64,000 bases of DNA from Candidatus Moraniibacteriota bacterium (lineage in GTDB: Bacteria; Patescibacteriota; Minisyncoccia; Moranbacterales; GCA-2747515). This document shows, in pieces, positions 762-64,000 of the stretch; positions within the stretch are counted from its first letter, which is position 1, and every line of letters begins with the position of its first letter. The position numbers and the translations under genes were made by a program. The notes under the pieces were generated by a model. The model saw only the letters and a program-made list of their open reading frames with translations. It ran no database searches and had not been told where the DNA came from. The stretch spans positions 819,449-883,448 of the forward strand of contig CP065011.1 of the NCBI GenBank assembly GCA_016699795.1, given 5' to 3'.

Positions 762-1862
762 TTGGATGAAAGAATTATTGCCAAGCTCCGCTTTTTACTA
801 CAATTTCCAAGTTTCGTTACGAAAGGAGAATATCGACAGCCCTATAAAAGAAATAAGCGAGATAAAACAATTATGATTGAGCATTCGATAAAGAAATCTT
901 TTCCAAGAAATCAACTTCGAAAGAACATTCTTTCTACGGTATGTTACTTTGACGCGATAGAAAAATCACTTACAGCTTTAGAAATTTGGCGTTTTTGTTT
1001 GGACACGCAATATCTTTTTGGAGAAAATTCTCATCGTTTGGAGCCGGGAAATGTTTCCTATAGTGAAATTCTTCGAGTTTTAGATGATCTTGTGAGAGAA
1101 AATTTCTTAGTTTTTTCTGAAGGATTCTATATAATTTCTTCAAAAAAAGAAGAACATGAGATAAGAAAAAAGAATAAAAAAATTTCAGATGAGAAACTTT
1201 GGAAACTTCATTCCTGGGCTTCTTTTTTGCGATACATTCCTTTTATTCGATCAATTATTGTTACTGGTGGATTATCGTCTGGAAATGCAACAAAAAATAG
1301 TGATTGGGATGTTTTAATAGTTGTCCGACGAGGGCATATTTGGACAGCTCGTTTTCTTATGGTTTTTGTGACGCAGCTTTTGGGGAAGAGAAGATATGCT
1401 CATTATATTAAAGATAGAATATGTCTTAATCATTTCATTTCCGATGGAGCTCTTTCTCTTCAATTACGAGATCTTTTTTCCGCCAAGGAATATATCCTTT
1501 CTCTTCCTTTGTGTAATGAAAGATTGTTTGAAAGATTCTTAAGGGAAAATTTGTGGATACGATCATTTTTTCCTCTTTGGGAAATTCCTCGAGCCAAAAA
1601 TATGATTTGTTTAGAGAAAAATTCTTTAGGAAAAATTCTTCAGCGTTTTTTGGAAGCTATTCCTTTTTGGGGAATCCTTGAAAAAAAACTTCGAGTTTGG
1701 CAAAAACAAAAGATTCTCAAAAATCCAAAAACAAATGAACTAGGAAGTTACATTGTAGCTAATGATGATGCTTTAATTTTCCTTCCCGATCCCCATGGGC
1801 CTCGGATATTTGAAAAATTTAAAGAAAATACTTTTCGATTTTCAAGTCGAACAGAGATATAA
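762..1862 (+). CDS. hypothetical protein with a polymerase-beta-type nucleotidyltransferase motif
   Basis: 366-aa ORF containing GGLSSGNATKNSDWDVLIVV, a GS...DxD-like nucleotidyltransferase signature. Nothing else was recognised. Confidence 0.3.
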   Translation: MDERIIAKLRFLLQFPSFVTKGEYRQPYKRNKRDKTIMIEHSIKKSFPRNQLRKNILSTVCYFDAIEKSLTALEIWRFCLDTQYLFGENSHRLEPGNVSYSEILRVLDDLVRENFLVFSEGFYIISSKKEEHEIRKKNKKISDEKLWKLHSWASFLRYIPFIRSIIVTGGLSSGNATKNSDWDVLIVVRRGHIWTARFLMVFVTQLLGKRRYAHYIKDRICLNHFISDGALSLQLRDLFSAKEYILSLPLCNERLFERFLRENLWIRSFFPLWEIPRAKNMICLEKNSLGKILQRFLEAIPFWGILEKKLRVWQKQKILKNPKTNELGSYIVANDDALIFLPDPHGPRIFEKFKENTFRFSSRTEI

Positions 1863-1868
1863 AAGATT

Positions 1869-3011
1869 TTAAAGGTAGGGACATTTACCTTCTTTTTTGA
1901 GTTTATCAATAAGTTTCTTGATATCGCTTCCTACAGTTTTTCTATCTGCTACGAGAATAGCATCTTCAGAATCTATAATAACAATATTCTTGAGATTGAG
2001 TGTGGTGATGAGTTTATTTTGGCCAGAAATAAAACATTCTTTACTTCCTAAATCAATATGATTTCCTTTGGCAACGATAGAGGAATTATATCGATTTTTG
2101 AGAAAGTCATAGAGCGCTTCCCAGTTTCCAATATCATCCCATTCAAGATCAGTCGGGATAACAAGTCTTTTATCTTTGGGCATTTTTTCGATAATGGCAG
2201 TATCGATAGGATCTTCTGGCATAGTAAGATAAAGAGTTTCAATAGTTTTTTTGGAAGGATGTGGTTTTTGGAGTTCTTTATTAATTTTTCTAAGAGGTTT
2301 CCAAATAGTAGGTGCATATTCTTTCACGAGTTCTAAGAGTGATCCTGGAATAAAAACAAAATATCCCGCATTCCAAAGATACTCCCATCCAGAAAGGTAT
2401 CTTTTCGCGGTTGCAATTTGGGGTTTTTCTTTGAAAGCGTCAGCATGAAAAACACGTTTTGTGAAAGTATTTTCTATTTCTTTTCCAATTTTTATATATC
2501 CAAATGCTGTGGAGGGATGCGTGGGATTAATACCGAGAGTTGCAATGCTATCAGGAAATTCTTCAATAGCCTCAAAAGATGTCTTAAGTGCATCGGAGAA
2601 TTCTTTGATATTGCCAATAGCATGATCTGAAGCAATGGTTGCTATAATGGCATCCTTATGAAGAAAGGAAAGTTCAAGTGCGGCTAGTGCTATTCCGGGA
2701 GCAGTGCTTCGTTGAGCGGGTTCGATAATAAGATGATCTTGTGAAATATCGGGAATGTTTTGAAAAACAAGATCCTGGTATCTCTTTGTGGTAGAGATGT
2801 AGATATTATTTTTTGGTACTATTGAGAGAGCTCGTTCATATGTTTCCTGAAGAAGTGTTTTCGAAGAAAGAAGTGTGTGGAATTGTTTGGGTTTTGACGA
2901 TCGTGAAATGGGCCAAAGTCTTGTTCCTGTTCCACCTGCCATAATAACAATAATCCTTTCTTTCAAAGGTTTTTTTATAACATCTTCTGATTTGTCGTTG
3001 ACTTTTTTCAT
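1869..3011 (-). CDS. manC: mannose-1-phosphate guanylyltransferase (GDP-mannose pyrophosphorylase)
   Basis: The N-terminal IIVIMAGGTGTRLWPISRSSKPKQF nucleotidyl transferase signature and overall length match ManC/CpsB. Confidence 0.75.
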   Translation of the reverse strand: MKKVNDKSEDVIKKPLKERIIVIMAGGTGTRLWPISRSSKPKQFHTLLSSKTLLQETYERALSIVPKNNIYISTTKRYQDLVFQNIPDISQDHLIIEPAQRSTAPGIALAALELSFLHKDAIIATIASDHAIGNIKEFSDALKTSFEAIEEFPDSIATLGINPTHPSTAFGYIKIGKEIENTFTKRVFHADAFKEKPQIATAKRYLSGWEYLWNAGYFVFIPGSLLELVKEYAPTIWKPLRKINKELQKPHPSKKTIETLYLTMPEDPIDTAIIEKMPKDKRLVIPTDLEWDDIGNWEALYDFLKNRYNSSIVAKGNHIDLGSKECFISGQNKLITTLNLKNIVIIDSEDAILVADRKTVGSDIKKLIDKLKKEGKCPYL

Positions 3012-3074
3012 AGAGATTGGTACTGTTAACTATGTTTTACGTATAAATGATTGTGAATCTTCTCTTTATATATT

Positions 3075-3296
3075 ATGCATACTTTAGAAGTTCTTCAAGT
3101 GATTGTATCTCTTTTGCTCATTGTTTCCATACTTATGCAAAATCGTGGGTCGAGTCTTGGGGGAGGTTTTGGGGGAGATTCTTTTTCAAGTTACCACACA
3201 AAGCGGGGATTTGAAAAGTTTCTTGTCCGTATATCAATCTTCCTTTCTTTTGCGTTTCTCGCTTTGTCTCTGGCAAATGTCTGGACCGTCTCGTAG
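3075..3296 (+). CDS. secG: preprotein translocase subunit SecG
   Basis: 73-aa protein with two transmembrane segments and a Gly-rich loop (NRGSSLGGGFGGDSFS), the characteristic SecG pattern. Confidence 0.6.
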   Translation: MHTLEVLQVIVSLLLIVSILMQNRGSSLGGGFGGDSFSSYHTKRGFEKFLVRISIFLSFAFLALSLANVWTVS

Positions 3297-3333
3297 AGAT
3301 TTATTGTGATTTTGGAAAAATGAATACGCGCCT

Positions 3334-5049
3334 ATGTCGTTGTATCGAAAAAGCACTTCTTCTGTAAGTCGATTTACCCTCGGATGGTGGGGGGCTCTTC
3401 GTTCGTTTTCTTTTCGCGAAAAACTTGTCGTGGGTTCTTTATTTATTCTTATTGCAAGTTCTATTTTTTATTGGGGAAATTTGGTTTACAAACATTTTAC
3501 TATAGCCATCCCTAAAGAAGGAGGGACGTATATAGAGGGAACAATAGGAAATCCTCATCGTATCAATCCAATATTTTCGAAAGCAAATATCCCAGATCAT
3601 GAAATTTCTCGATTAGTTTATTCTGGACTTTTAAAATATGATGCGCAAGGAAACCTCATAGAAGATATTGCAAAAAGCTGGGAAGTTTCTGAAGACGGAA
3701 AAACCTATACCGTACAGCTTCGAGAAGACGTTCTTTGGCATGACGGAGTTTCTTTGAATGCTCATGATATAACTTTTACAATTGATACAATAAAGAATGC
3801 TGAATATAGTAGTCCTTTTAGAAATATTTGGCTTGATGTTAGTGTAAAAAGAGGAGAAAATGATTATCAAGCTATTTTTACTTTACAAAGTCCGAGGGCA
3901 AATTTTAAAGAAAATCTTACTGTGGGAATTTTACCAAAACATATTTGGGAAAGTATTCCTCCCCAAAACTTTGCACTTCACCCTTCCAACTTAGAGCCTA
4001 TAGGGACTGGTCCTTATCGTTTCGAGCAATCTCAAAAGGACACTGAAGGGAAGATTCTTATTTATGAACTTTCTTCCTTTGCTAAATATTATGGAAAAAA
4101 ACCAAATATTTCAAAAGTTATTTTTAAATTTTATCCAGATAGAGAGTCTTTGCGTCAGGCTTATAAGAATAAAGAAGTGAAGGGTTTGAGTGGCATTGAT
4201 ACTTCTGACCTTCAAGAATTAGGAGATCACGTTGAACGTCTTAATCTTCATGCTATTGAAGTACCTCATTTTTTTGTTGTGTATTTTAATCAATCAAAAA
4301 GTAAATCTCTTGCCTATAAGGAAGTAAGAAATGCACTTAATCTTGCCACGAATCGTACAAAAATTGTTGAAGATATTCTTTCTGGAAAAGGAAAGGTTGT
4401 TCGAGGACCTTTTTTGGAAGAAAGCTTCACGGAAGAATCATTTGAAGATCGTCAAAAAAAAGCAAAAGATCTTTTAGAAGAGAATGGTTGGAAGTTGGGA
4501 GCTGATGGTGTGCGAGAGAAGAATGGAGTTCGTATTGAATTTGATATGTATACAGGAGATATTATTCAGGATCTTTCTGTTACTGCAGATGCTTTGAAAT
4601 CACAGTGGGAGGTTATAGGAGTAAGGGTCAATGTAAAAGTCCTTCCTGATCATGATCTCTTTAATAATTATATGAAACCTAGAGAATATGATTCTTTGCT
4701 CTACGCCCACATGACAACATTCATTCCCGATATTTCTCCCTTTTGGCATTCTACTAAAACAAAGGATCCAGGATTGAATTTTTCAGTGTACAAAAATGAT
4801 GAACTCGATGGATTTCTTGATACGCTTCTTATTTCACAAAACGATGAAGAAAGAAAAAAGGCATCAGAAGGAACTACACGCATTTTTGCGGAAGAGAGTC
4901 CTGCTCTCTATCTTTATTCTCCCTCATACATATATCCTTTGGATAAAAGTATTCAAGGAGTTACCTTAAAGAGGCTCACCGAAGACGCTAATAGGTTTTA
5001 CGATATTGAAAATTGGTATATAAAAACAAATCGTATTTGGAAAAAGTAA
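3334..5049 (+). CDS. ABC transporter substrate-binding protein, family 5 (peptide/nickel type)
   Basis: N-terminal transmembrane anchor, then the YSGLLKYDAQGNLIEDIAKSWEVSEDGKTYTVQLREDVLWHDG block typical of family-5 solute-binding proteins; 571 aa. Confidence 0.65.
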   Translation: MSLYRKSTSSVSRFTLGWWGALRSFSFREKLVVGSLFILIASSIFYWGNLVYKHFTIAIPKEGGTYIEGTIGNPHRINPIFSKANIPDHEISRLVYSGLLKYDAQGNLIEDIAKSWEVSEDGKTYTVQLREDVLWHDGVSLNAHDITFTIDTIKNAEYSSPFRNIWLDVSVKRGENDYQAIFTLQSPRANFKENLTVGILPKHIWESIPPQNFALHPSNLEPIGTGPYRFEQSQKDTEGKILIYELSSFAKYYGKKPNISKVIFKFYPDRESLRQAYKNKEVKGLSGIDTSDLQELGDHVERLNLHAIEVPHFFVVYFNQSKSKSLAYKEVRNALNLATNRTKIVEDILSGKGKVVRGPFLEESFTEESFEDRQKKAKDLLEENGWKLGADGVREKNGVRIEFDMYTGDIIQDLSVTADALKSQWEVIGVRVNVKVLPDHDLFNNYMKPREYDSLLYAHMTTFIPDISPFWHSTKTKDPGLNFSVYKNDELDGFLDTLLISQNDEERKKASEGTTRIFAEESPALYLYSPSYIYPLDKSIQGVTLKRLTEDANRFYDIENWYIKTNRIWKK

Positions 5050-26829: not shown

Positions 26830-26964
26830 GGATCGTTTTTATGAAAAAGTAGGGTGTTTTCTTTTTTTAAATTTAGCTTGCACGATATTTTTTTAAAAAA
26901 ACAAAAAAATATTTTTCATTGAAGACAGAGAAAAAGTTTTTATTTTTTCTTTGAGTTTTTTTGT

Positions 26965-27060
26965 ATAGAGCAGGACTCGGTTACGAATATATTTTTTAAA
27001 AATATTTCTCGACTCCGACTTGCGGTTTCGCATAAACGCGAAATGTCGCTTCGTCTTTCT
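26965..27060 (-). repeat. tRNA-trailer repeat A: partial copy of the tRNA-Arg(TCG) T-arm plus a ~65-nt conserved unit
   Basis: GCAGGACTCG is shared with the tRNA-Arg(TCG) T-arm. The segment then aligns at ~65-70 percent with the unit at 27351-27440 (cggtYacgaRtat...ctcgacYccRcYtSggg...tcgca). Confidence 0.45.
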
Positions 27061-27118
27061 TGCTCTGACTCAAATAAAACCCTTTATTTGCTACGCAAAA
27101 CAAGTACTTTGTTCATTG

Positions 27119-27191
27119 TGTCCCCGGCAGGACTCGAACCTACAACCTTCTGGTCCGAAGCCAGACACTCTATCCATTGAGCTACGGGGAC
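27119..27191 (-). tRNA. tRNA-Arg (anticodon TCG)
   Basis: The reverse complement folds as acceptor GTCCCCG/CGGGGAC, anticodon stem TCTGG/CCAGA with loop CTTCGGA, and T-loop TTCGAGT. Confidence 0.8.
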
Positions 27192-27212
27192 TTTTTCTTC
27201 TTTGTGAAGAAG

Positions 27213-27286
27213 GGGGCGACTACTGGGAATTGAACCCAGATTCTTGGGACCACAACCCAATGTCCTACCATTGAACGATAGCCGCC
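27213..27286 (-). tRNA. tRNA-His (anticodon GTG) with encoded G-1
   Basis: The reverse complement folds as G-1 + GCGGCTA/TAGTCGC, anticodon stem TTGGG/CCCAA with loop TTGTGGT, and T-loop TTCAATT. G-1 pairs with discriminator C. Confidence 0.75.
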
Positions 27287-27350
27287 ATGTATCGTAAATT
27301 GTATCAACTTTTCTCGCTTATTGCGAGATGAGAACCCGCAATAACTTTTT

Positions 27351-27440
27351 TGTGCCCTCGGAGGGAATCGGTCACGAGTATTTTTCTAAAAGAAAAATCT
27401 CTCGACCCCACCTCGGGGTGCTTCGCACATCACTCCGGTT
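27351..27440 (-). repeat. tRNA-trailer repeat B: exact 20-nt copy of the tRNA-Arg(TCT) 3' end plus the ~65-nt conserved unit
   Basis: TGTGCCCTCGGAGGGAATCG at 27351-27370 is identical to 27495-27514, the T-arm 3' half plus acceptor 3' strand of tRNA-Arg(TCT). The sequence then diverges into the shared trailer unit. Confidence 0.5.
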
Positions 27441-27496
27441 TTCTCATCCCTCATGCACGTAAAGCAGTTTACGTGCTCTCGTGCACAAGAAACTTG

Positions 27497-27568
27497 TGCC
27501 CTCGGAGGGAATCGAACCCCCATCAAGAGCTTAGAAGACTCCTGCTCTATCCATTGAGCTACAAGGGC
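27497..27568 (-). tRNA. tRNA-Arg (anticodon TCT)
   Basis: The reverse complement folds as acceptor GCCCTTG/CGAGGGC, anticodon stem GGAGT/GCTCT (two GU pairs) with loop CTTCTAA, and T-loop TTCGATT. Confidence 0.8.
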
Positions 27569-27601
27569 TTTAAAAAAACAGTTTTCATCAATTCAACTAT
27601 G

Positions 27602-27674
27602 TGCGCGCAGAGGGATTCGAACCCCCGACCGTTTGGTTAAGAGCCAACTGCTCTACCAGCTGAGCTATGCGCGC
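27602..27674 (-). tRNA. tRNA-Lys (anticodon CTT)
   Basis: The reverse complement folds as acceptor GCGCGCA/TGCGCGC, anticodon loop CTCTTAA, and T-stem GGGGG/CCCTC with loop TTCGAAT. Confidence 0.8.
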
Positions 27675-27955
27675 AAAGTGTGCTATTGTGGGATGCTTTT
27701 TGTAAAAAAACGATACGAGATGAGCGTACCAGAAAAGTAAAAATGAGTCAATAAAAAATAGTTGACTGTATAAATTGATCTGTGCTAGTATGAAAACCTC
27801 ATTTGAGAAGGGGAGACCGAAAGGTCTTTTTTGATTGTCTTTAGGGGGTTTATTTGTAAGAACAATGTATGTGTAATCTTCTTCAAGAAGGAAGCGCTGA
27901 AAGTTTTGTTTCCTATAAAAATAACCTAAAAAATAATAAAAAGAAGAAGAAAGGA

Positions 27956-28657
27956 ATGTATTTAGTGGGAAAATATATTTTCCTCGTTTTTTTGACAGCT
28001 ACTTGGTTATTTATAAGACCATGGGTTGTTTCAAAAGCTTATGAAAGTAAAGATTTTAGCTCTTTTGAAAGGAGTTCAAATGAATTTGATTTAGATACTA
28101 TTCGAAAAGAAATAGATTTTTTCTTTCTTTCTGAAAAGAATGATCAGGAAAATTTAAAAGAACGTGAGCAACTTTTTAAGGAATTTGAAAAAACAGAAAC
28201 CGAGGATTATTTAAAAAATATACTTTCTGGATATCCAATGGAAGACATGATACCGTTTCTTTTAACCCAGGATAGTCAGGTTATGGCATTTTTGGTTGGT
28301 ATCGCAAAGAAAGAAAGTGATTGGGGAAAACATGTTCCTGTGGATAGACATGGTACGGATTGTTATAATTATTGGGGATATAAAGCTCCTGGCTCCTTGG
28401 GTGTACAAAAATCGGGCTATGGCTGTTTTTCAAGTCCAGAGGAAGCAATTTCTCGTGTTGGGGAAAGAATAAAAAAACTTGTACTAGAAAATAAGAAAGA
28501 TACTCCTGGAAAAATGGTAATTTGGAAATGTGGATCTTCATGTGCTGGTCATGAAAAAGGCTCAGTTCAAAAATGGATTGGAGATGTGGGATATTATCAT
28601 GCTAAAATCCTTGCTGTTGTAGAAAAAGATTCTCTATGGAAGAAAAACAAAACATAG
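27956..28657 (+). CDS. secreted hypothetical protein
   Basis: Signal-peptide-like N-terminus (start taken at the Met at 27956) and a Cys-containing C-terminal region (CYNYWGY, CGSSCAGHEKG). No family recognised. Confidence 0.35.
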   Translation: MYLVGKYIFLVFLTATWLFIRPWVVSKAYESKDFSSFERSSNEFDLDTIRKEIDFFFLSEKNDQENLKEREQLFKEFEKTETEDYLKNILSGYPMEDMIPFLLTQDSQVMAFLVGIAKKESDWGKHVPVDRHGTDCYNYWGYKAPGSLGVQKSGYGCFSSPEEAISRVGERIKKLVLENKKDTPGKMVIWKCGSSCAGHEKGSVQKWIGDVGYYHAKILAVVEKDSLWKKNKT

Positions 28658-56985: not shown

Positions 56986-58035
56986 ATGAAAAAAGAGGAT
57001 GTGGAGATTTATATTTACATCCTCGTCTCGCGTTTTTTTGAATCCCAATATTTTTCTATGAATAAACAAGAACTTTTTGAAAAAATTCTTTCTGCCTACT
57101 ATGACGCTCGAAAGAATAAAAGAAAAAGTCACGACGCAATTTTTTTTGAGATGAATTATGAAAAAGAATGTATGCGATTGTGTGAAGAGCTTATGGATAG
57201 AACGTATAGAATTTCACCCAGTTCTTGTTTTATTGTGAACAGACCAGTAAAAAGAGAAATTTTTGCCGGAGCTTTTCGTGATAGGGTTATTCATCATTTT
57301 CTTTTTAATGCTGTAAATCCCTGGTGTGAAACAATGTTTATCCGTGATACGTATAGTTGTCGAAAAGGAAAGGGAACCTCCTATGCCGTATCTCGTGCAA
57401 TACATTTTCTTCGCTCTGTTTCAAAAAATTATTCTTCGGATGCTTGGGTAATACGACTAGATATAGCGGGGTATTTTATGTCTATTCGAAAGGATATTTT
57501 ATTTTCTATCTTTGTAGATCTTTTAGAACGTCATCGAAACGCTATGTTATATGACTTTGATCTTCTTTTTTGGTTAGGACAAAAAATTATTGATAATAAT
57601 CCAATTTTTTCTGCTAAAGTGAAAGGAAAGAAAGAGGATTGGGTTGGGTTGCCGAGAAATAAAAGTCTTTATTGGGCTGAAAAAGGTTGCGGATTACCTA
57701 TCGGAAATTTAACAAGTCAACTTTTTGCAAATGTATATTTGAGTGATTTTGATTACTATGTTCGATCTATAGTTTCTCGTCTTGGGGGATGTTATGGGCG
57801 ATATGTAGATGATATTCTTATTTTTATACCTAAGAATAAGAATATTCGGACAGTTGTGCAATTACTCGAACAGCATCTTTTTAAAAAAAGACGGCTTTAT
57901 ATACATCCGAAAAAAATTTTCACACAACCGTATAAAAACGGTTTTTCTTTTGTTGGTAGATATATCCTTCCTTATAGAATATATATAAAACGAAAAACAA
58001 AACAGAATATGAAAAAAATTTTATTAAGAAGATGA
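56986..58035 (+). CDS. DGR reverse transcriptase
   Basis: RT motifs FRDRVIHHFLF (1/2), GLPIGNLTSQLFANVYLSDFD (B/4) and YGRYVDDILIF (C/5, YxDD); 349 aa. Confidence 0.85.
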   Translation: MKKEDVEIYIYILVSRFFESQYFSMNKQELFEKILSAYYDARKNKRKSHDAIFFEMNYEKECMRLCEELMDRTYRISPSSCFIVNRPVKREIFAGAFRDRVIHHFLFNAVNPWCETMFIRDTYSCRKGKGTSYAVSRAIHFLRSVSKNYSSDAWVIRLDIAGYFMSIRKDILFSIFVDLLERHRNAMLYDFDLLFWLGQKIIDNNPIFSAKVKGKKEDWVGLPRNKSLYWAEKGCGLPIGNLTSQLFANVYLSDFDYYVRSIVSRLGGCYGRYVDDILIFIPKNKNIRTVVQLLEQHLFKKRRLYIHPKKIFTQPYKNGFSFVGRYILPYRIYIKRKTKQNMKKILLRR

Positions 58036-58317
58036 ATACAATTTCAAAACGAAAGACAAAATAATAGAACTTGTGAAATTCATTCATTTCATGCTTGTTG
58101 GATATCGTATGAAGGTATATTTGAATATTGTAATGCTTATAAAGTAAGAGAAAGATGGACTTGTGTTTATAAAAAGAAGAAGAAAGAATTGGAATTGATA
58201 GAAATGAATACTATAAGAGTGTAACTGATGCAAGTCATTGGGTTCTTATTAGAGGGAAATAAAGAAGATTTTTTGAAAATTTTTTTGAAAATAAAAACTA
58301 TGGTATACTTGGAGGGT

Positions 58318-61300
58318 ATGAAATTTCTCAAACAAACAGCACAAAAAAGGAAAATACAGTTTTTTGTAGGAATGTTTTTTGTGGTGCTTGTGAATGTTTT
58401 TTCTGTGGGAGAGGCGAAGGCATATACTTTTGATACTAACTGGATATCGCCGATCAGATCGTATCCAACAGCGGTTGGTTTTGGCACTCTTTCTTGGACG
58501 GAAACTCCTGCTGTGGATGCAAGTGCTTTGATGTATATTCGTGCAGGGAATACAGCTATTCCTGATGGTTCATGGACGGATTGGACGGCTATTTCCAATG
58601 GAGGGAATCTTGCTGTCTTGGGGGTCAAAAAATATGTGCAACAAAAAATTAATTTCTTTGGAAATGGCTTAGCTGTTCCTGTTATTTCCGACATTACTTT
58701 ATCTACGTATTCTGGAGAGCTTTTTTCTTCGTCTTATGATACTAAAGCTTCTCTCAATCAAATCCTTTCTTTTCATTGGAATGCATTAGAATCTGGCTGG
58801 GGGAATACGGCGTTTCAGATACAAGTTTCTCGAGACAAAACAACATGGAATTCATGGTGTAGTGGAATGGAAAATCCAAGCGGAAATTGTGATACTTCGG
58901 TGTGGTTTGAAAATGATTCTGGAACGAATGAATCGACGGTTGTGATGGATAATGCACAGTATCGTTATATTCGATATAGACTTTTTTTTACAGGAAATAC
59001 TGAAAATACGGCTTCCATAGGGGATGTTCGTATAGAGTATGATAAAAAAATATACCAAACACATTTTACCAGCCCCGTCAAAGACTTTCTTTCCCCCTCT
59101 CTTTTCCAAACGCTTTCTTGGAATGAAACTCCGGGACTTGAAGCAGCACTCACTATGAATGTCCGATCAGGAAATACTCCAACACCTGACGGAACATGGT
59201 CTTCATGGATTCCCATTTCCAATGGGGGAGATATATCCCAATTTACAGGCAATCGCTATCTTCAGTATGAAGCAACGTTTTCTTCGTATGATGTAGATAC
59301 ATCAGTTATTCTTTCCGATGTAACAGTTGCTTACTCCCAATACCCCGTAGGCTCCTATCTTCTCACCTCTTCCCCCTACAACTCCACCGATACTGCGAAC
59401 CTCCTCTCTAAAATAGAATGGAATGAAACCATTCCTCCTCAAACAAATATACGTTTCCAACTCCGAACCGCACCAGATCTAACAGGATCTCCTGATTGGA
59501 ACAATGGTTCCAAATGGTGTGGACCTACAGATTGCGCCCTCACAACAAATAGCAATGACTTTGCTTCGAGTTTTTACGAAACAACACCACAAGGAGAATC
59601 TACCAATCCCATACATCTAGAAGGAAACAATGATCAATGGTTACAGTATGCTACCTGGCTTTCTAATGAAAACACCGGAGCCACTCCAACACTTTCTCAA
59701 GTAACGCTTACCTATCTGGTAAACGCTTCTCCTATGATTCAAAATGTAACTGCTACTCCCAATACAGATAAAACAGTAGATATCACCTACGAAGTCAAAG
59801 ATCCTGATACAACTACAGGAACCAATACTCCAGGATTTATTACTCCGAGCTTTTCCTATTGGGATGGAGATTCATGGGAAAGCATTGCTTCTAATACTCT
59901 AGCTCCCGAAGATGTACAAAACAAAGCAGTGAATCAAGATTCGTACACAACACACACAGCTACCTGGACTCCTTCACTTTCTCACTCAAATCTCTATCTT
60001 TCTGGATCAGCCAAGATTCGTGTCACTATAGGGGACAATGAAGGAGCAAATAATACAGCAAATGCAGAATCCAATACCTTTACATTGGATACAAAGATTC
60101 CAGAGAACCCTTCTCTTTCTATAGACGCATCCACTCAAGATCTTCTTGATACCAACACCACATCACTCCTTACTCTTTCTGTATCTGAAGACTCTCAACG
60201 ATTCATGAAAGTTTCTCTTTTTCCTGATCTCTCTGATACTGATTGGGAACCCCATACTCTTAACAAAACTATCAAACTCCAAAGTGATCCTGATACCGTC
60301 TACGCACAATTCAAAGATCAATACGGAAATGAAACACAAATCATTGCTACTGAGAGTATAGAGACTCCTTCTCATATCATGACACAAGATACTTCTAATC
60401 TTTATCTTACTCCTCCTGAATATCGAGTCTTTCTTAGTTTCAAACCATCAGAAATCTCTTCTCAAGAATTCTCTCGTTATGAACTCTTCAGAAAAGAAGA
60501 AGGGGGTTCTTATGGTACTGACCCTCATGATATACGAACAGTTCCTCAAGAAAACTTTCTTACTGATTCAGGAGGAGGTGTTGATCCTAATACTCTCTAT
60601 ACGTATAAAGTACGAACCAAAGATACACTCGGAAATATTTCTTTCTTTTCTCAAGAAGTAACTGCCAAAGCAAATGGCATCCAAGATGCAGGAGAGGGTG
60701 GTGGTGGAGTTGATGATAGTTCTCCTTCTATTGCCAACGTAACCGTAGAATCTAAAGACACCACAACCGTAACTATCACATGGGAAACAGATGAACTCTC
60801 TGACTCTCGTGTAGAATATGCAACCACTCCCAACACCTATACCAAACAAACAGGAGTCTCTACCTATGCTGACACCCAAGCACAATCAGGACTTCATAGA
60901 GTCACTCTTACCAACCTCACACCAAACACTCCCTACTTCTTTAGAGTTGCCTCTACTGATCCTCAAGGCAATACCGGAGTCAATGACAATAATGGCAATG
61001 GATATGAAGTCACAACGAATCCTGGACCTTCTATCAGTGGTGTAGCGGTATCAAGTGCTTCTAACACACAAGCAACCATATTCTGGAATACGAATGTCCC
61101 TGCAGACTCTGTACTCCATTACAGTGAAAACAAGAATGGATCTCTTATCGATCCTATCACTCTCTCCGGATCAAGTGTTCTTACAAAAAATCATCAAGTA
61201 ACCTTAGATGCTCTTACTCAAGGAACCACCTACTATTTCTACGTTACCTCCACCGACTCACAAGGAAACATTGCCAATGACAATAATGGAGGAAACTATT

Positions 61301-63159
61301 TTCAATTCTCTACAACACTCGACGAAACACCTCCTACCATAACGAATCTTCAAACATCTCTTATCTCAAATGACAAAGCAGTTATTACAGCAAACACAGA
61401 TGAAGAAGCATCCTTCCTCCTTCAGTACAGAAAAAAAGGAAGCCTTACCTTCACACAAACAGAACAAGGAACAACATACGATAGATCTCACTACAGGGTA
61501 CTCGATACTCTTACTCCTGATACAGAGTATGAATATCAAGTGAGTGTTAAAGATATCAATCAAAACGAATCACAGAGTGATATACAAACAATGAAAACAA
61601 CCTTAGATCCAGAATACAATCATGCACCTCTTTCAAAGATTCATACTATCAGTGATCCTCCTAAAGTACTCACTGATCAAAAAGCAGTCATAACCTTCCA
61701 GACGGATCAAGCAGCAAACTGCATCCTTGAATATGGAACCCAATCAAGAAACTACCAAGAAGTTCCTCAAACAGAAGCGACAGGAATCTATGACACACTC
61801 CATTCCCTGCATCTTGGAGGACTCATCTTTAACACAACCTACTTCTACAAACTTCTTTGTGAAGATAATCTTGGAACCCTCATAGAGAGTGAAGAAAAAA
61901 GCTTCACAACAAAACTCAAACAAGTAGACAGTGGAAGTGAACAAGCAGAATCTACTCCTCCCTCTATCTCAGGAGTCAAAGTCAAAGACATTACAGGAGA
62001 GAGTGCAGTGGTGAGTTGGGAGACGGATGAAGTTTCAAACTCACAGGTGAGGTATGGGACGACGGAGGAGATGGAAGAATTAAGAGGAAATGCTTTGATA
62101 AATACAGACATCGCTAAATTCTCAACAGCCCATTCTGTAACCTTGCGAGGACTCATTCCTTCAACAAAGTATTTTTTCAGTGCAAGCTCATACGACACCG
62201 CCGGAAACATAGGCACCTCCTCCCAACAAACCTTCCAAACGCAATCTCCTTCTTCCATCTCTTCCATTAAAGCTTCTTCCAAACAAATAGGGGAAACAAC
62301 TATCACATGGAAAACTTCCACTCCCACTACCTCTATTGTTGAATATGGAAACACAGAAAACTATGGACAAACAAGAAAAAGTGAAGAACTCAAAAAAGAT
62401 CATGAAATTATCATAAACAATCTTTTAGAAAACTCTACCTACCACTTCCGAGTAAAAGGAGAAGATGAATCAAAAAATCTCTTCTCTTCTTCCGACTCTA
62501 CCTTTGAACCAAAGTCTCCACCACAAATCAAAGAAATCAAGATAGAAGTTCTTTCAGACAGAGAAGCAAAAGTAAACTTCCTTACTGATACTCTTACCGA
62601 CTCTCTTGTAACCTACAAAAACAAAAACAAAGAAGAAGATCAAAAGAGTGAAGGAAATCCCTCCCTCCTCCAAACTCACTCCCTCACCCTCAAAGAACTC
62701 ACTCCTGGAGAAAACTACGTTCTTACTGTACGAGTCAGAGATGATATGGGAAATGAAACTCTCTCTGATGAGATAGAATTCACTATGCAAAAAGATGAAA
62801 CTTCTCCTACAGTAGAAAGAGTCTCTACCGACTCCGCTCTTTCACAAAACGGAAAAGTACAAATGATTATTAACTGGCAAACAGATGAAGATGCTTCTTC
62901 CTCCCTCATCTACAAAGAAGGAAGAGCAGGAGAAGAAAAAACAGTGAATGTAAGTTCTTCCCCAACAAAGAATCACATCATTGTACTCACCTCTTGGAAA
63001 CCAGGAACTCTCTACTCTTACAAAGTCATAGTAAAAGATCTGAGTGGGAATGAAACCATAACCAAAGACTACATCACCCTTACACCACAAACAAAAGAAT
63101 CTGTTGTAGAACTCATCATAAAGAACTTCAAAGAAATCTTTGCTTGGACGGGAGGGTAG
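58318..63159 (+). CDS. giant secreted surface protein with about eight tandem fibronectin type III-like repeats
   Basis: Signal peptide MKFLKQT...VGEAKA. The C-terminal ~800 aa consist of ~100-aa units of the form ...SI(S/A)xVxV....TxAxIxWxTDE.SxSxVxYG....Y.....L.......L.P.T.YYFRV. 1643 aa from the track start. Confidence 0.5.
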   Translation: MKFLKQTAQKRKIQFFVGMFFVVLVNVFSVGEAKAYTFDTNWISPIRSYPTAVGFGTLSWTETPAVDASALMYIRAGNTAIPDGSWTDWTAISNGGNLAVLGVKKYVQQKINFFGNGLAVPVISDITLSTYSGELFSSSYDTKASLNQILSFHWNALESGWGNTAFQIQVSRDKTTWNSWCSGMENPSGNCDTSVWFENDSGTNESTVVMDNAQYRYIRYRLFFTGNTENTASIGDVRIEYDKKIYQTHFTSPVKDFLSPSLFQTLSWNETPGLEAALTMNVRSGNTPTPDGTWSSWIPISNGGDISQFTGNRYLQYEATFSSYDVDTSVILSDVTVAYSQYPVGSYLLTSSPYNSTDTANLLSKIEWNETIPPQTNIRFQLRTAPDLTGSPDWNNGSKWCGPTDCALTTNSNDFASSFYETTPQGESTNPIHLEGNNDQWLQYATWLSNENTGATPTLSQVTLTYLVNASPMIQNVTATPNTDKTVDITYEVKDPDTTTGTNTPGFITPSFSYWDGDSWESIASNTLAPEDVQNKAVNQDSYTTHTATWTPSLSHSNLYLSGSAKIRVTIGDNEGANNTANAESNTFTLDTKIPENPSLSIDASTQDLLDTNTTSLLTLSVSEDSQRFMKVSLFPDLSDTDWEPHTLNKTIKLQSDPDTVYAQFKDQYGNETQIIATESIETPSHIMTQDTSNLYLTPPEYRVFLSFKPSEISSQEFSRYELFRKEEGGSYGTDPHDIRTVPQENFLTDSGGGVDPNTLYTYKVRTKDTLGNISFFSQEVTAKANGIQDAGEGGGGVDDSSPSIANVTVESKDTTTVTITWETDELSDSRVEYATTPNTYTKQTGVSTYADTQAQSGLHRVTLTNLTPNTPYFFRVASTDPQGNTGVNDNNGNGYEVTTNPGPSISGVAVSSASNTQATIFWNTNVPADSVLHYSENKNGSLIDPITLSGSSVLTKNHQVTLDALTQGTTYYFYVTSTDSQGNIANDNNGGNYFQFSTTLDETPPTITNLQTSLISNDKAVITANTDEEASFLLQYRKKGSLTFTQTEQGTTYDRSHYRVLDTLTPDTEYEYQVSVKDINQNESQSDIQTMKTTLDPEYNHAPLSKIHTISDPPKVLTDQKAVITFQTDQAANCILEYGTQSRNYQEVPQTEATGIYDTLHSLHLGGLIFNTTYFYKLLCEDNLGTLIESEEKSFTTKLKQVDSGSEQAESTPPSISGVKVKDITGESAVVSWETDEVSNSQVRYGTTEEMEELRGNALINTDIAKFSTAHSVTLRGLIPSTKYFFSASSYDTAGNIGTSSQQTFQTQSPSSISSIKASSKQIGETTITWKTSTPTTSIVEYGNTENYGQTRKSEELKKDHEIIINNLLENSTYHFRVKGEDESKNLFSSSDSTFEPKSPPQIKEIKIEVLSDREAKVNFLTDTLTDSLVTYKNKNKEEDQKSEGNPSLLQTHSLTLKELTPGENYVLTVRVRDDMGNETLSDEIEFTMQKDETSPTVERVSTDSALSQNGKVQMIINWQTDEDASSSLIYKEGRAGEEKTVNVSSSPTKNHIIVLTSWKPGTLYSYKVIVKDLSGNETITKDYITLTPQTKESVVELIIKNFKEIFAWTGG

Positions 63160-63403
63160 GAGGGGAGGGGAAAACTCTCTGAACTCATAAAAAAAGAGAG
63201 ATCGTCAAAACAATCGTGACTGGTTTTCTCTTACATTAAAATTATCAAGATATAATTCTTGCGGTGACGGAGGGAGGGAGGTTCCTATAAAAAAGTGTAT
63301 TTGATGTAACTAATGACTTTACTCGACTTTAATAAAAGAGTATTACCCAAACGACAAGAGAACTAAAAATTTGCTGAGGCTCTGGGACAAAGTTGGAATT
63401 TTA

Positions 63404-63871
63404 TTAAGAATTTATAGATTGCTCAATTGCAGCTTTAAGCTCTTCGGGGACATCCGTTCCTATGCGATAGACTTTCCCATTTTTCATAGTTATCTCAACC
63501 GCATAAAGACCGGAAACACTGTAAATCCACATATATGGCCAGAACCAGATTTTTATTCCCCATCCGTAGTACCAGTGATTCTTTACTGTTTGAGTTGAAT
63601 CTATCTGATCAAGTGCAAATTTCTTGGCAAAAATTCCGTAACCAAACCTGATCCGAAGATAGCTTTCATCGATTGACACTTTCAGTGTGGCAAATGATCC
63701 AAGAATAAACAGAATCAATGCCATTATGGCAGAAACGGCAAAATTTGTTCCGGAGTCGACCGAAGGAGCCTCGGCTCTAGCCGTAATTTGAGCCCATGTA
63801 AAAAGTACTAGTATGGCTAGTGTAACAACTAGCATTAGGTACCCAATTTGGGTGTGTTTGTACGAAGTCAT
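63404..63871 (-). CDS. membrane hypothetical protein
   Basis: 155 aa with two or three transmembrane helices and no motif. Confidence 0.3.
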   Translation of the reverse strand: MTSYKHTQIGYLMLVVTLAILVLFTWAQITARAEAPSVDSGTNFAVSAIMALILFILGSFATLKVSIDESYLRIRFGYGIFAKKFALDQIDSTQTVKNHWYYGWGIKIWFWPYMWIYSVSGLYAVEITMKNGKVYRIGTDVPEELKAAIEQSINS

Positions 63872-64000
63872 AAATCTATGAGTTTATTTTTCCAGACTAC
63901 TACTTTACCGGCAGATGGGTCTTTCCTTGTTTGATCCTTTTCATCATAACACAAACAAAAAAGCCCTTAAAGGGACTTTTTATTTGCGTATGCTGGGCCG

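Follow-up and report, generated by a model that had tools for sequence, protein, structure and literature searches.

What kind of element leaves a copy of a tRNA gene's 3' part just behind the gene itself? The question is raised by a cluster of four tRNA genes in a stretch of DNA from Candidatus Moraniibacteriota (contig CP065011.1, positions 819,449 to 883,448; the whole 64,000 nucleotides are referred to below as the window). The window is chromosomal DNA of a bacterium of the candidate phyla radiation (CPR)/Patescibacteria and has a GC content of about 35%. Both genes for tRNA-Arg in the cluster are followed by a unit that contains a copy of part of the gene. These two units, designated U1 and U2, are members of a widespread family found in CPR/Patescibacteria; its elements are small, structured and protein-less, and Rfam has no model for them.

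The four tRNA genes are all on the minus strand, and both ARAGORN and the Rfam tRNA model recover them as they had been read in an earlier note made from the letters of this DNA alone. The first gene of the cluster, tRNA-Lys(CTT), occupies 27601-27674. It is followed by tRNA-Arg(TCT) at 27496-27568 (68.8 bits), which is the host gene of U1, by tRNA-His(GTG) at 27212-27286, on the same strand downstream of U1, and by tRNA-Arg(TCG) at 27118-27191 (70.3 bits), which is the host gene of U2. Scores with the Rfam tRNA model are 60-70 bits for the four genes, none of which encodes CCA.

U1 is intact and extends over 27350-27495 of the minus strand, as delimited by a covariance model and by row 1 of the alignment A2 described below. 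Its end duplicates a target segment, here called T, that lies at 27494-27514 within and just behind the host gene. The exact repeat (27350-27370 = 27494-27514, spacing 144) is 21 nt long, one base longer than the 20 nt that had been noted earlier; chance alone should not produce such a repeat in 64 kb. Its tRNA-strand sequence is CGAUUCCCUCCGAGGGCA plus CAA, and it thus runs from C56 of the T loop through the discriminator base A73 and three bases of the trailer. A spacer hairpin lies at 27455-27476, where the earlier note had placed it (GCACGTAAA-CTGC-TTTACGTGC, or GCACGUAAA-CUGC-UUUACGUGC as RNA), and its AA-CUGC-UU tip recurs in loci L006, L012, L091, L134, L140 and L180. Next comes a short arm, GAGGGA (27447-27452), which is the 5' strand of a helix P1 and the Watson-Crick complement of UCCCUC in the copy; the T-stem 5' strand of tRNA-Arg(TCT) itself is GGGGG, unlike the arm. 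The conserved core at 27371-27446, as defined by RNAalifold and pair counts, comprises a junction strand J1/2 (UGAG-AAA), helices P2a and P2b, a GGGG run and helix P3 (GGUCG-A-GAG ... CUC-G-UGAC), and it ends at an invariant boundary where GUGAC directly precedes C56. The copy of nucleotides 56-73 plus CAA (27350-27370) then forms the 3' strand of P1.

U2 (26961-27117, minus strand; delimited by covariance model and fold) has kept the same core, in which GAGUCGAGA and UCGUAACC are variants. Agreement between its copy and the tRNA is down to 10 nt. This short T-arm copy, which had been put at 10-11 nt, is exact for 10 nt (GCAGGACTCG, 26970-26979 = 27127-27136) and likewise begins at C56; the remnant CGAGUCCUGC at 26970-26979 gives way to diverged sequence beyond that point. 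The U2 arm, AGAGCA at 27061-27066, pairs with UGCUCU (26967-26972) of the diverged copy, so that the outer stem is retained through compensatory changes, AGAGCA:UGCUCU together with a longer outer helix. U2 is an older, decaying member of the family. The reverse complement of its diverged copy (UAUAGAGCAGGACUC, 26962-26978 on the plus strand) also matches the D-arm/anticodon-stem region of tRNA-Arg(TCT), at 27537-27553 on the plus strand, in 15 of 17 positions. This inverted match is possibly due to chance, given the T-arm-like composition of the copy.

Each copy in the window is embedded in a homologous unit of about 110 nt. The shared trailer of about 65 nt that had been described behind the two genes is therefore real, and it is longer than first thought: the two post-tRNA spacers align over their full length with 74% column identity. 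A covariance model, R1, derived from units of other genomes, finds exactly two matches in the window, U1 at 27352-27461(-) with 95 bits (E=1e-24) and U2 at 26961-27077(-) with 72 bits (E=5e-18). The pattern GTCGAGAN{15,28}TCGTRACCGA likewise matches the U1 and U2 sites and no others in the window, with zero matches expected from 100 shuffles.

Relatives of these units were collected with two pattern scans. The first used GCGAA..GTCGAGA..TCGTRACCGA on one genome per species; the matches listed were mostly chance occurrences in GC-rich genomes, and about 10 real CPR loci remained after filtering. The second used a sharper pattern on JGI/ENA metagenome contigs and gave at least 120 loci with genuine matches. 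Combined, the scans yield at least 135 core matches in at least 129 loci, of which at least 121 are distinct. All counts given for the family are lower bounds rather than a census, and they do not fix its taxonomic breadth; those that follow are counts among the matches listed. The filtered genome scan places relatives in Saccharibacteria, Parcubacteria/Paceibacterota, Moraniibacteriota and unclassified Patescibacteria metagenome-assembled genomes (MAGs). Two MAGs labelled 'uncultured Bdellovibrionales', a label that is unconfirmed, carry typical units behind tRNA-Tyr and tRNA-Val (L053 and L091). Either the family reaches beyond Patescibacteria or these bins are mislabelled. Rfam 15 gives no match on the window units at E<=10 and none in eight further loci at E<=1, apart from one overlap with the permuted-tmRNA model (E=0.57, 23.5 bits versus a gathering score of 47). 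No description of these elements was found in the literature searched.

The position of the units 3' of tRNA and transfer-messenger RNA (tmRNA) genes is obligatory. A tRNA or tmRNA gene lies on the same strand no more than 170 nt upstream in 83 of the 121 distinct units, and a contig end truncates another eight. Among the 30 left over, several come behind a tRNA that ARAGORN probably misses because of a group I intron (L137, L139) or behind a truncated tmRNA (L240). Rfam group I introns with 76-82 bits are present at L137:1727-1967(-), L139:8889-9129(-) and L164:2699-2936(+). Those of L137 and L139 lie 117-300 nt upstream of the unit where ARAGORN calls no tRNA and may interrupt uncalled tRNA genes; the L164 intron is more than 2 kb from the units. 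The hosts comprise 17 tRNA amino-acid types (Ser, Arg, Val, Leu, Trp, Glu, Gln, Gly, Cys, Ile, Tyr, Asp, Lys, His, Asn, Thr and Ala) as well as tmRNA. By ARAGORN, Ser genes are the most frequent (16), followed by Arg (13), Val (9), Leu (8), Trp (6), Glu (6), Gln (5), Gly (4), Cys (4) and others. Most tRNAs in any locus have no unit.

A terminator scan finds no intrinsic terminator inside U1 or U2, and the terminators that flank units elsewhere remain distinct from the unit itself, so an intrinsic terminator motif alone was rejected as an explanation. A strict criterion places an intrinsic terminator behind the tRNA and ahead of the arm in 20 of the 83 units, and some units have a further one after the copy. 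The trailer might also have been a tRNA-downstream motif with no link to duplicated tRNA ends. It is indeed common behind tRNAs, yet the copy tracks the neighbouring gene, and in 49 distinct units it does so exactly over at least 18 nt.

Throughout the family, five parts follow one another in the same order: a spacer hairpin (an intrinsic terminator or a CUGC-tipped hairpin), the arm, the three-way junction, the boundary of GUGAC with C56, and the copy. Units are about 110-170 nt long and enclose 80-170 nt of DNA. An exact copy of at least 18 nt of the upstream gene directly follows the invariant ...UCGUGAC in 54 units, the 49 distinct ones just mentioned among them. The copies begin at C56 and stop 0 to +10 nt past the gene, such that the block of identity is essentially nucleotides 56-73 plus C or CA. 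Longer blocks of 25-29 nt occur in seven loci, including cases with a second, partial unit behind (L006, L254). On the other side, conserved element sequence begins directly after N73, for example with CAATGAT at seven Ser, Trp and Tyr genes. Sequence beyond the second copy is unrelated, unconserved flank.

The arm upstream of the core is complementary to the copy, typically over 9 bp, for example CAGGAAUCG:CGAUUCCUG, and perfect 16-nt arms are found in L208, L212, L219, L235 and L243. In many units an extra 5' segment, P0, pairs with the acceptor 3' strand and trailer, and an AA-CUGC-UU-tipped hairpin lies between P0 and the arm. Arm and copy are each specific for their host gene. Where the T stem of the tRNA contains a wobble pair (G.U or U.G), the arm is the Watson-Crick complement of the 3' strand in nine of ten cases, U1 included. 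It is therefore the 3' part itself that serves as template for the arm or against which the arm is selected. Mismatched copies, such as those of U2, L018 and L053, read as decayed. Inspection by hand of arms facing a diverged copy indicates that the arm follows the tRNA in L124 and in the second L193 unit, and follows the copy in U2. A retro-copy of mature tRNA was not supported as the source of these segments: CCA is present in the copy only in seven cases, in the gene only in two, in both in five and in neither in 45, arms have no consistent TGG, and identity often runs into the genomic trailer. In L012, tRNA-Asp (4691-4767, plus strand) has UCCGAGU as its T loop, so that position 55, nearly always U, is C. 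The same base is the invariant C before C56 in units (GUGAC-C), which suggests gene conversion from the unit copy into a functional gene.

The part between arm and copy is a conserved three-way-junction element that folds on the sense strand. Alignment A2, which comprises 43 units, is the basis of both the RNAalifold fold and model R1. In the predicted consensus fold, P1 joins the arm with the copy, J1/2 is G-AAA, and P2a is a 3-bp helix whose middle pair is CG in 18, GC in 14, AU in 10 and UA in one of the 43 sequences. P2b is a short helix past a GGA/GA internal loop and is followed by the GGGG run. P3 has the form GGUCG-A-GAR...YUC-G-UGACC with a variable, covarying distal stem. Over 26 pairs, 96.3% of cells form a standard pair, versus 74.5% in shuffled alignments. 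The covariation score is 0.564 versus 0.158 when shuffled, a value reached by none of 500 shuffles, and it falls to 0.10 or less when the 3' partner is slid by 1-3 columns. A G.U pair in P3 is present in 43 of 43 sequences, and G.U exceeds A.C elsewhere. These asymmetries indicate that it is the tRNA-sense strand that folds, either as RNA or as single-stranded DNA.

Such a structure bears directly on the idea that the units are functionless by-products of tandem duplication or unequal crossing-over at tRNA genes, that is, degenerate tRNA pseudogenes. Tandem and one-and-a-half-unit arrays exist (L124, L006, L254), whole tRNA-plus-unit modules have been duplicated in L140 (Arg-gcg and Arg-ccg, with cores 97% identical), and both units of the window lie behind Arg genes, all of which would fit. 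However, the covariation reveals selection on structure, and a single conserved core recurs, across several phyla, after tmRNA and no fewer than 17 species of tRNA. Neither ARAGORN nor the Rfam tRNA model, at E up to 10, finds a cloverleaf at 26961-27117 or 27350-27495, and the arm is not the tRNA's own 5' strand. This reading is largely refuted and retains little credence. The missing cloverleaf and the composition of the arm also exclude a tRNA pseudogene with a T-loop insertion, and the 'degenerate tRNA pseudogenes' among the three options of the earlier note do not survive the same evidence.

Whether units come and go can be judged from two relatives (L252 and L254, with PilM 58% identical), in which the same pil operon is followed by minus-strand Lys(ctt)-Arg(tct)-His(gtg)-Arg(tcg) genes. 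Behind Lys(ctt), the window has no unit and a spacer of 32 nt, L254 has 1.5 units and L252 has one unit. Behind Arg(tct), where the window has U1, L254 has none and a 46-nt spacer, and L252 has an unrelated insert of about 105 nt with its own direct repeat of about 20 nt. Neither the window nor L254 has a unit behind His(gtg), and L252 has two extra tandem 5' halves of tRNA-Arg(tcg) there. Behind Arg(tcg), U2 of the window corresponds to a terminator directly behind the gene in L254, which has no unit, and to a unit with a perfect 22-nt copy followed by a terminator in L252 (T-element-T-terminator). Filled sites thus read T-element-T-flank and empty sites T-flank, as expected from insertion with target duplication or, equally, from precise loss via the direct repeats. 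The comparison with related genomes that had been proposed earlier bears out differing occupancy of orthologous tRNAs among three genomes, though with no integrase tied to the units.

The unrelated insert of L252 (9415-9545, minus strand) is bounded by the direct repeat CCGARGGTACAAGGAAATT, made up of the last 9 tRNA nucleotides plus trailer. It occupies the position orthologous to U1 and goes unrecognised by model R1; a badly degenerated unit and a small element of some other sort are both conceivable. The tandem 5' halves of tRNA-Arg(tcg) at L252:9000-9240(-) extend to the anticodon loop with a period of about 118 nt, each followed by about 75 nt of other sequence. They sit between tRNA-His and the complete tRNA-Arg(tcg) and represent partial-tRNA repeats of another type.

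Presence/absence polymorphism and tandem forms are thus features of the family. Tandem identical units occur in L124, and tandem or partial units in L006 and L254. Several single contigs carry two units, and the cores of two units on one contig are 0.88-0.97 identical, even for a Ser unit and an Arg unit in L193. Across contigs, the median core identity is 0.65 for the same tRNA species versus 0.66 for different tRNAs. Likeness within contigs without likeness between units of the same tRNA across contigs is a sign of intragenomic spread or concerted evolution.

Duplicated tRNA 3' ends are otherwise best known from integrases, and the copies could be the attL and attR sites of integrase islands at the T loop, with the 125-150 nt between them a deletion remnant or a cis-mobilisable mini-element dependent on such an integrase. 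Integrases with their crossover point in the T loop typically leave a block of identity that starts in this loop and stops shortly beyond the 3' end, and tmRNA genes are hosts as well. Three long versions (L204, L174, L192) have 2.5-4.5 kb between tRNA and unit, and terminators lie behind both copies in L055 and L022, as if the element supplied a replacement 3' end. Against this, the DNA in between is no set of random remnants: it forms a conserved, covarying structure whose architecture is the same at no fewer than 121 sites, and it contains an antisense copy of the would-be att core, which att scars do not have. The units contain no protein in cis. Among the neighbours of U1 and U2 within about ±5 kb there is no tyrosine or serine recombinase, and the segments bounded there measure 125-150 nt. 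When open reading frames within ±4 kb of about 130 units were clustered, the recurrent families were housekeeping genes and one mobile-type family, a large serine recombinase (LSR) in eight loci. This LSR cluster alone was annotated, and no transposase, TnpA, RAYT or TnpB gene was recognised among the recurrent families near units.

The LSR was considered as the mobilising enzyme, since it is the sole recurrent mobile gene and since in L204 an LSR element (gene at 2583-4142, minus strand) sits between tRNA-Ser and that gene's unit. In all eight loci, however, the LSR gene is convergent with a tRNA or tmRNA gene of its own, and the two 3' ends are about 50 nt apart at most. Four further LSR contexts (L244-L247), all at tRNA-Ser(gct), give no R1 match at E<=1 over 6.4-7 kb of element-side sequence, or about 500 nt or less in L245 and L247. 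Three of these four have an 18-nt inverted repeat of their own around the LSR gene. The convergence on tRNA 3' ends and the unit-less contexts indicate that the LSR element is separate and itself targets tRNA 3' ends, and the candidate was rejected. The long versions contain the LSR element or ordinary cargo and no transposase.

The LSR elements have features of their own. The family is very large in CPR, with 64-93% identity over many contigs. Its gene converges on or overlaps the 3' end of tRNA-Ser, Glu, Leu, Val or tmRNA in L204, L244-L247, L022, L141, L176, L183, L203, L238/L208 and L242. The cargo of these elements consists of helix-turn-helix and restriction-modification genes, and restriction-modification cargo lies upstream of the LSR in L244 and L246. 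Their inverted repeat starts in the last bases of the tRNA (CCGCCA+TTTTACAATTTC). In L204, 135 nt of the LSR 3' end are duplicated in inverted orientation at 4244-4378.

Collections of extrachromosomal DNA were no more suggestive of integrase islands. A strict pattern has zero matches in 2.9 million viral contigs, and BLAST of 50,697 phage genome records finds none, results on which a phage attP was rejected. Against plasmids, BLAST gives only a weak 37-nt P3-like match. This is L248 (plasmid pRGI00823, HG796376.1), a 2.7-kb circular 'uncultured bacterium' element with a P3-like hairpin, GGGGUCGAGAAAAAUUUUCUGUAAGAAAAAUUUUCGUAGCC, at 843-883(-) (13.8 bits, E=0.0035); it has neither the rest of a unit nor a tRNA. 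Taken with the enclosed structure of 125-150 nt and its antisense copy of the 3' part, these findings make an origin from integrase islands highly unlikely. The earlier note's 'attL/attR footprint' and 'excision scars' fall away for the same reasons, there being no recombinase linked to the units. The duplicated ends that it described are real; they are not random and have a causal tie to the trailer, and 'miniature elements' comes closest among its options.

A host-beneficial role deserves more weight. The units may be cis-acting RNA modules of tRNA operons, that is, structured spacers or minihelix-like RNAs, the latter with an acceptor/T-stem mimic that the three-way junction closes, for precursor processing, 3'-end definition or stability, which would act as 'punctuation' for RNase P, RNase Z or RNase III, descend vertically, be homogenised by gene conversion and be lost easily via their direct repeats. 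The strong covariation, the conserved unpaired purines, the sense-specific G.U pair and an A.G mismatch, both of the latter conserved on the sense strand of the hairpins, look RNA-like. With tRNA-His(GTG) downstream on the same strand, U1 is internal to a tRNA operon and hence transcribed within its precursor, and the same holds for 24 other units that have a further same-strand tRNA no more than 300 nt downstream. U2 has kept its closing stem by compensatory changes even though its copy no longer fits the tRNA, Arg(NCG) units of the window, L252 and L006 have a related spacer start, and the family persists in reduced genomes of about 1 Mb in several CPR phyla. On the other hand, a processing helix needs no identity with the neighbouring tRNA, and this identity is exact over 18-29 nt, often into non-functional trailer bases. 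A perfect terminator precedes about a quarter of units and leaves no space for a promoter. Occupancy of orthologous tRNAs is patchy, unit-less tRNAs are in the majority in any locus, and cores track the genome rather than the tRNA species. On balance a processing module is unlikely, if by no means negligible.

At somewhat less than even confidence, we lean towards an element without a protein of its own that is indel-dynamic and probably mobile, pairs with the tRNA it targets, duplicates 18 nt and is co-transcribed in tRNA operons. Such a non-autonomous insertion/deletion element would recognise the 3' part of a tRNA gene by base pairing of its arm, and its insertion would leave it flanked by an 18-nt duplication of nucleotides 56-73. 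The three-way junction on the tRNA-sense strand, as RNA or single-stranded DNA, would be a cis-acting structure read by machinery encoded elsewhere. With T present in two direct copies, recombination or slippage between them could remove the element, and the arm:copy helix may keep the antisense arm from invading the real tRNA. The mechanism itself is inferred.

Several points weigh against mobility of this kind. Both arm and copy must change with each new host tRNA, and the mechanism of this rewriting is not demonstrated. No trans-acting enzyme has been identified, nor has a circular or unintegrated form in the viral, phage and plasmid collections searched. A strong terminator precedes about 20 of the 83 units, so that transcription of many units may be weak. 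Losses alone could explain the polymorphism at orthologous sites, and the core similarity within contigs comes from only two contig pairs and could be produced by gene conversion. The Arg(NCG) units of the window, L252 and L006 have the spacer start AACAAAGT in common, so that some unit-tRNA pairs are old and vertically inherited in appearance. Finally, the invariance of the GGGTCGAGA and TCGTGACCGA.TCC blocks partly reflects ascertainment by the search patterns; the covariation falls in columns that the patterns left free.

A more unusual alternative is a self-contained, nucleic-acid-guided mobile element or functional RNA of a new kind in which the arm reads the 3' part of the tRNA or tmRNA gene or its precursor, the junction is catalytic or recruits a protein, and arm and copy are rewritten by templating at each target. 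It would then be a programmable element that homes to tRNA genes and encodes no protein in cis. This alternative is distinctly unlikely on present evidence. A related possibility is that units are genomically encoded spares or decoys of the tRNA 3' half.

If units are indeed mobile elements that pair with tRNA targets, they would constitute an abundant structured nucleic-acid family, apparently uncatalogued, that is tied to CPR/Patescibacteria tRNA and tmRNA genes. Many of the 'partial tRNA' calls and long tRNA spacers of CPR genomes would then have an explanation, and the units would provide a clear case of a protein-less element that retargets two guide-like segments. They may also point to an enzyme (a recombinase, nuclease or polymerase) or a ribozyme activity that recognises the T loop or 3' end of tRNA genes. 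Even as a host RNA-processing module, the family would be a new conserved RNA class in a major bacterial radiation.

The surroundings of the cluster are ordinary. A type IV pilus operon (pilM and others) lies on one side and genes for a SpoU-type methyltransferase, RecR, DnaB and XseA on the other; the protein-coding gene next to the cluster occupies 27869-28657. Synteny by way of the adjacent 262-aa protein was tried and proved uninformative, as relatives keep the protein-SpoU-RecR block without the tRNA cluster there. Near this block, a Moranbacteria relative has a bAvd / 23S_rRNA_IVP-type gene, an accessory of diversity-generating retroelements (L003:8708-9058, plus strand). GC skew is positive over 1-58 kb of the window and negative from about 58 kb, and GC content rises to about 0.39-0.40 at 58000-64000. 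This segment could be a replication-associated switch point or compositionally distinct DNA.

To our knowledge, no mobile element or non-coding RNA has been described in which a conserved core lies between sense and antisense copies of the 3' part of a neighbouring gene. Parts of the architecture resemble known systems nonetheless. Partial tRNA and tmRNA gene copies (attL/attR) arise from integrase-mediated integration of islands and prophages (reviewed in PMC9897764). As with these, the 3' part of the tRNA, beginning in the T loop and reaching slightly beyond the gene, is directly repeated downstream on the same strand, tmRNA genes are used, and the complete gene remains functional. Unlike them, units enclose only 80-170 nt, which are conserved and structured and include an antisense copy of the repeat, have no recombinase in cis or recurrent nearby, and are absent from the phage and viral collections searched. 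For the Islander set of Williams (2002), the block of identity reportedly likewise extends from the T loop to past the 3' end, with integrases crossing over in the T loop.

The TIGR-Tas arrays associated with CPR consist of alternating 8-12-nt repeats and 9-nt spacers beside a Nop-domain gene (PMC12045711). Set against that architecture, units are single, have a conserved core of about 70 nt and lack a Tas gene, and a TIGR-Tas guide array was rejected. Rfam ribozymes and permuted tmRNA do not fit by covariance models either. A miniature inverted-repeat transposable element or other DDE transposase derivative would have terminal inverted repeats and a short target-site duplication of constant length; units have a fixed-register 18-nt duplication (nucleotides 56-73) and no conventional terminal inverted repeats, and their sole inverted repeat, the arm versus the copy or tRNA, is target-derived. 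No autonomous partner with a transposase and the same ends was found, whether among the three long versions or recurrently near units.

In the tyrT operon of E. coli, 178-bp repeats each carry the last 19 nt of tRNA-Tyr. The likeness lies in a tRNA followed by repeat units that end in a 3'-end copy of about 19 nt and form tandem arrays by unequal recombination. The tyrT repeats are confined to a single locus in one lineage, without the common three-way junction or antisense arm, whereas units span many tRNA species and phyla.

Acceptor/T-arm minihelices and tRNA-like RNA domains, such as the tRNA-like domain of tmRNA, the MALAT1-associated small cytoplasmic RNA (mascRNA) and viral tRNA-like structures, offer a structural parallel. 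The arm and copy of a unit can form an acceptor/T-stem-like helix that ends at the discriminator base. Units have a three-way junction in place of a T loop and have neither a cloverleaf nor a match to the Rfam tRNA clan. Moreover, their helix runs into T-loop nucleotides, and the 3' tail is paired (P0) in several loci.

The guides of mobile elements that home to tRNA genes, namely the delocalised CRISPR RNA of type V-K CRISPR-associated transposons and the omega-RNA of TnpB, consist of a scaffold and a 3' guide. Units have a conserved scaffold followed by a 3' segment of about 20 nt identical to the neighbouring tRNA, and the tRNA bases 5' of the match are GGTT. They differ in having no Cas12k, TnpB or Tn7 genes recognised near them, in pairing the '3' guide' to an internal arm, and in standing alone at about 110-170 nt.

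'Peel-and-paste' elements of the IS200/IS605 group and their protein-less derivatives, such as palindrome-associated transposable elements (PATEs) and repetitive extragenic palindromes or bacterial interspersed mosaic elements (REP/BIME) with RAYT transposases, use a guide and target of 4-5 nt. In units the guide and target are 9-17 nt and specific to the tRNA, no TnpA, RAYT or TnpB was recognised as recurrent nearby, and the fold may or may not form in DNA. Units resemble these elements in their strand-specific imperfect hairpins with conserved mismatches, in an internal guide complementary both to the flanking target and to the identical sequence at the far end of the element, which gives the layout of T, its reverse complement and T again, and in being small, protein-less and multicopy.

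A further parallel is integration of the CTX-phi type, in which a folded single-stranded attP is used. Units have no phage genes and no identified Xer-type site, address many tRNA targets, and carry a 'cargo' of only 10-60 nt. In the integrated state of both, nevertheless, one end consists of an inverted arm, a structured spacer of about 70-100 nt and a direct arm/target hybrid, and the other of a restored target. In both, the stem formed by arm and copy is a Watson-Crick mimic of the target duplex.

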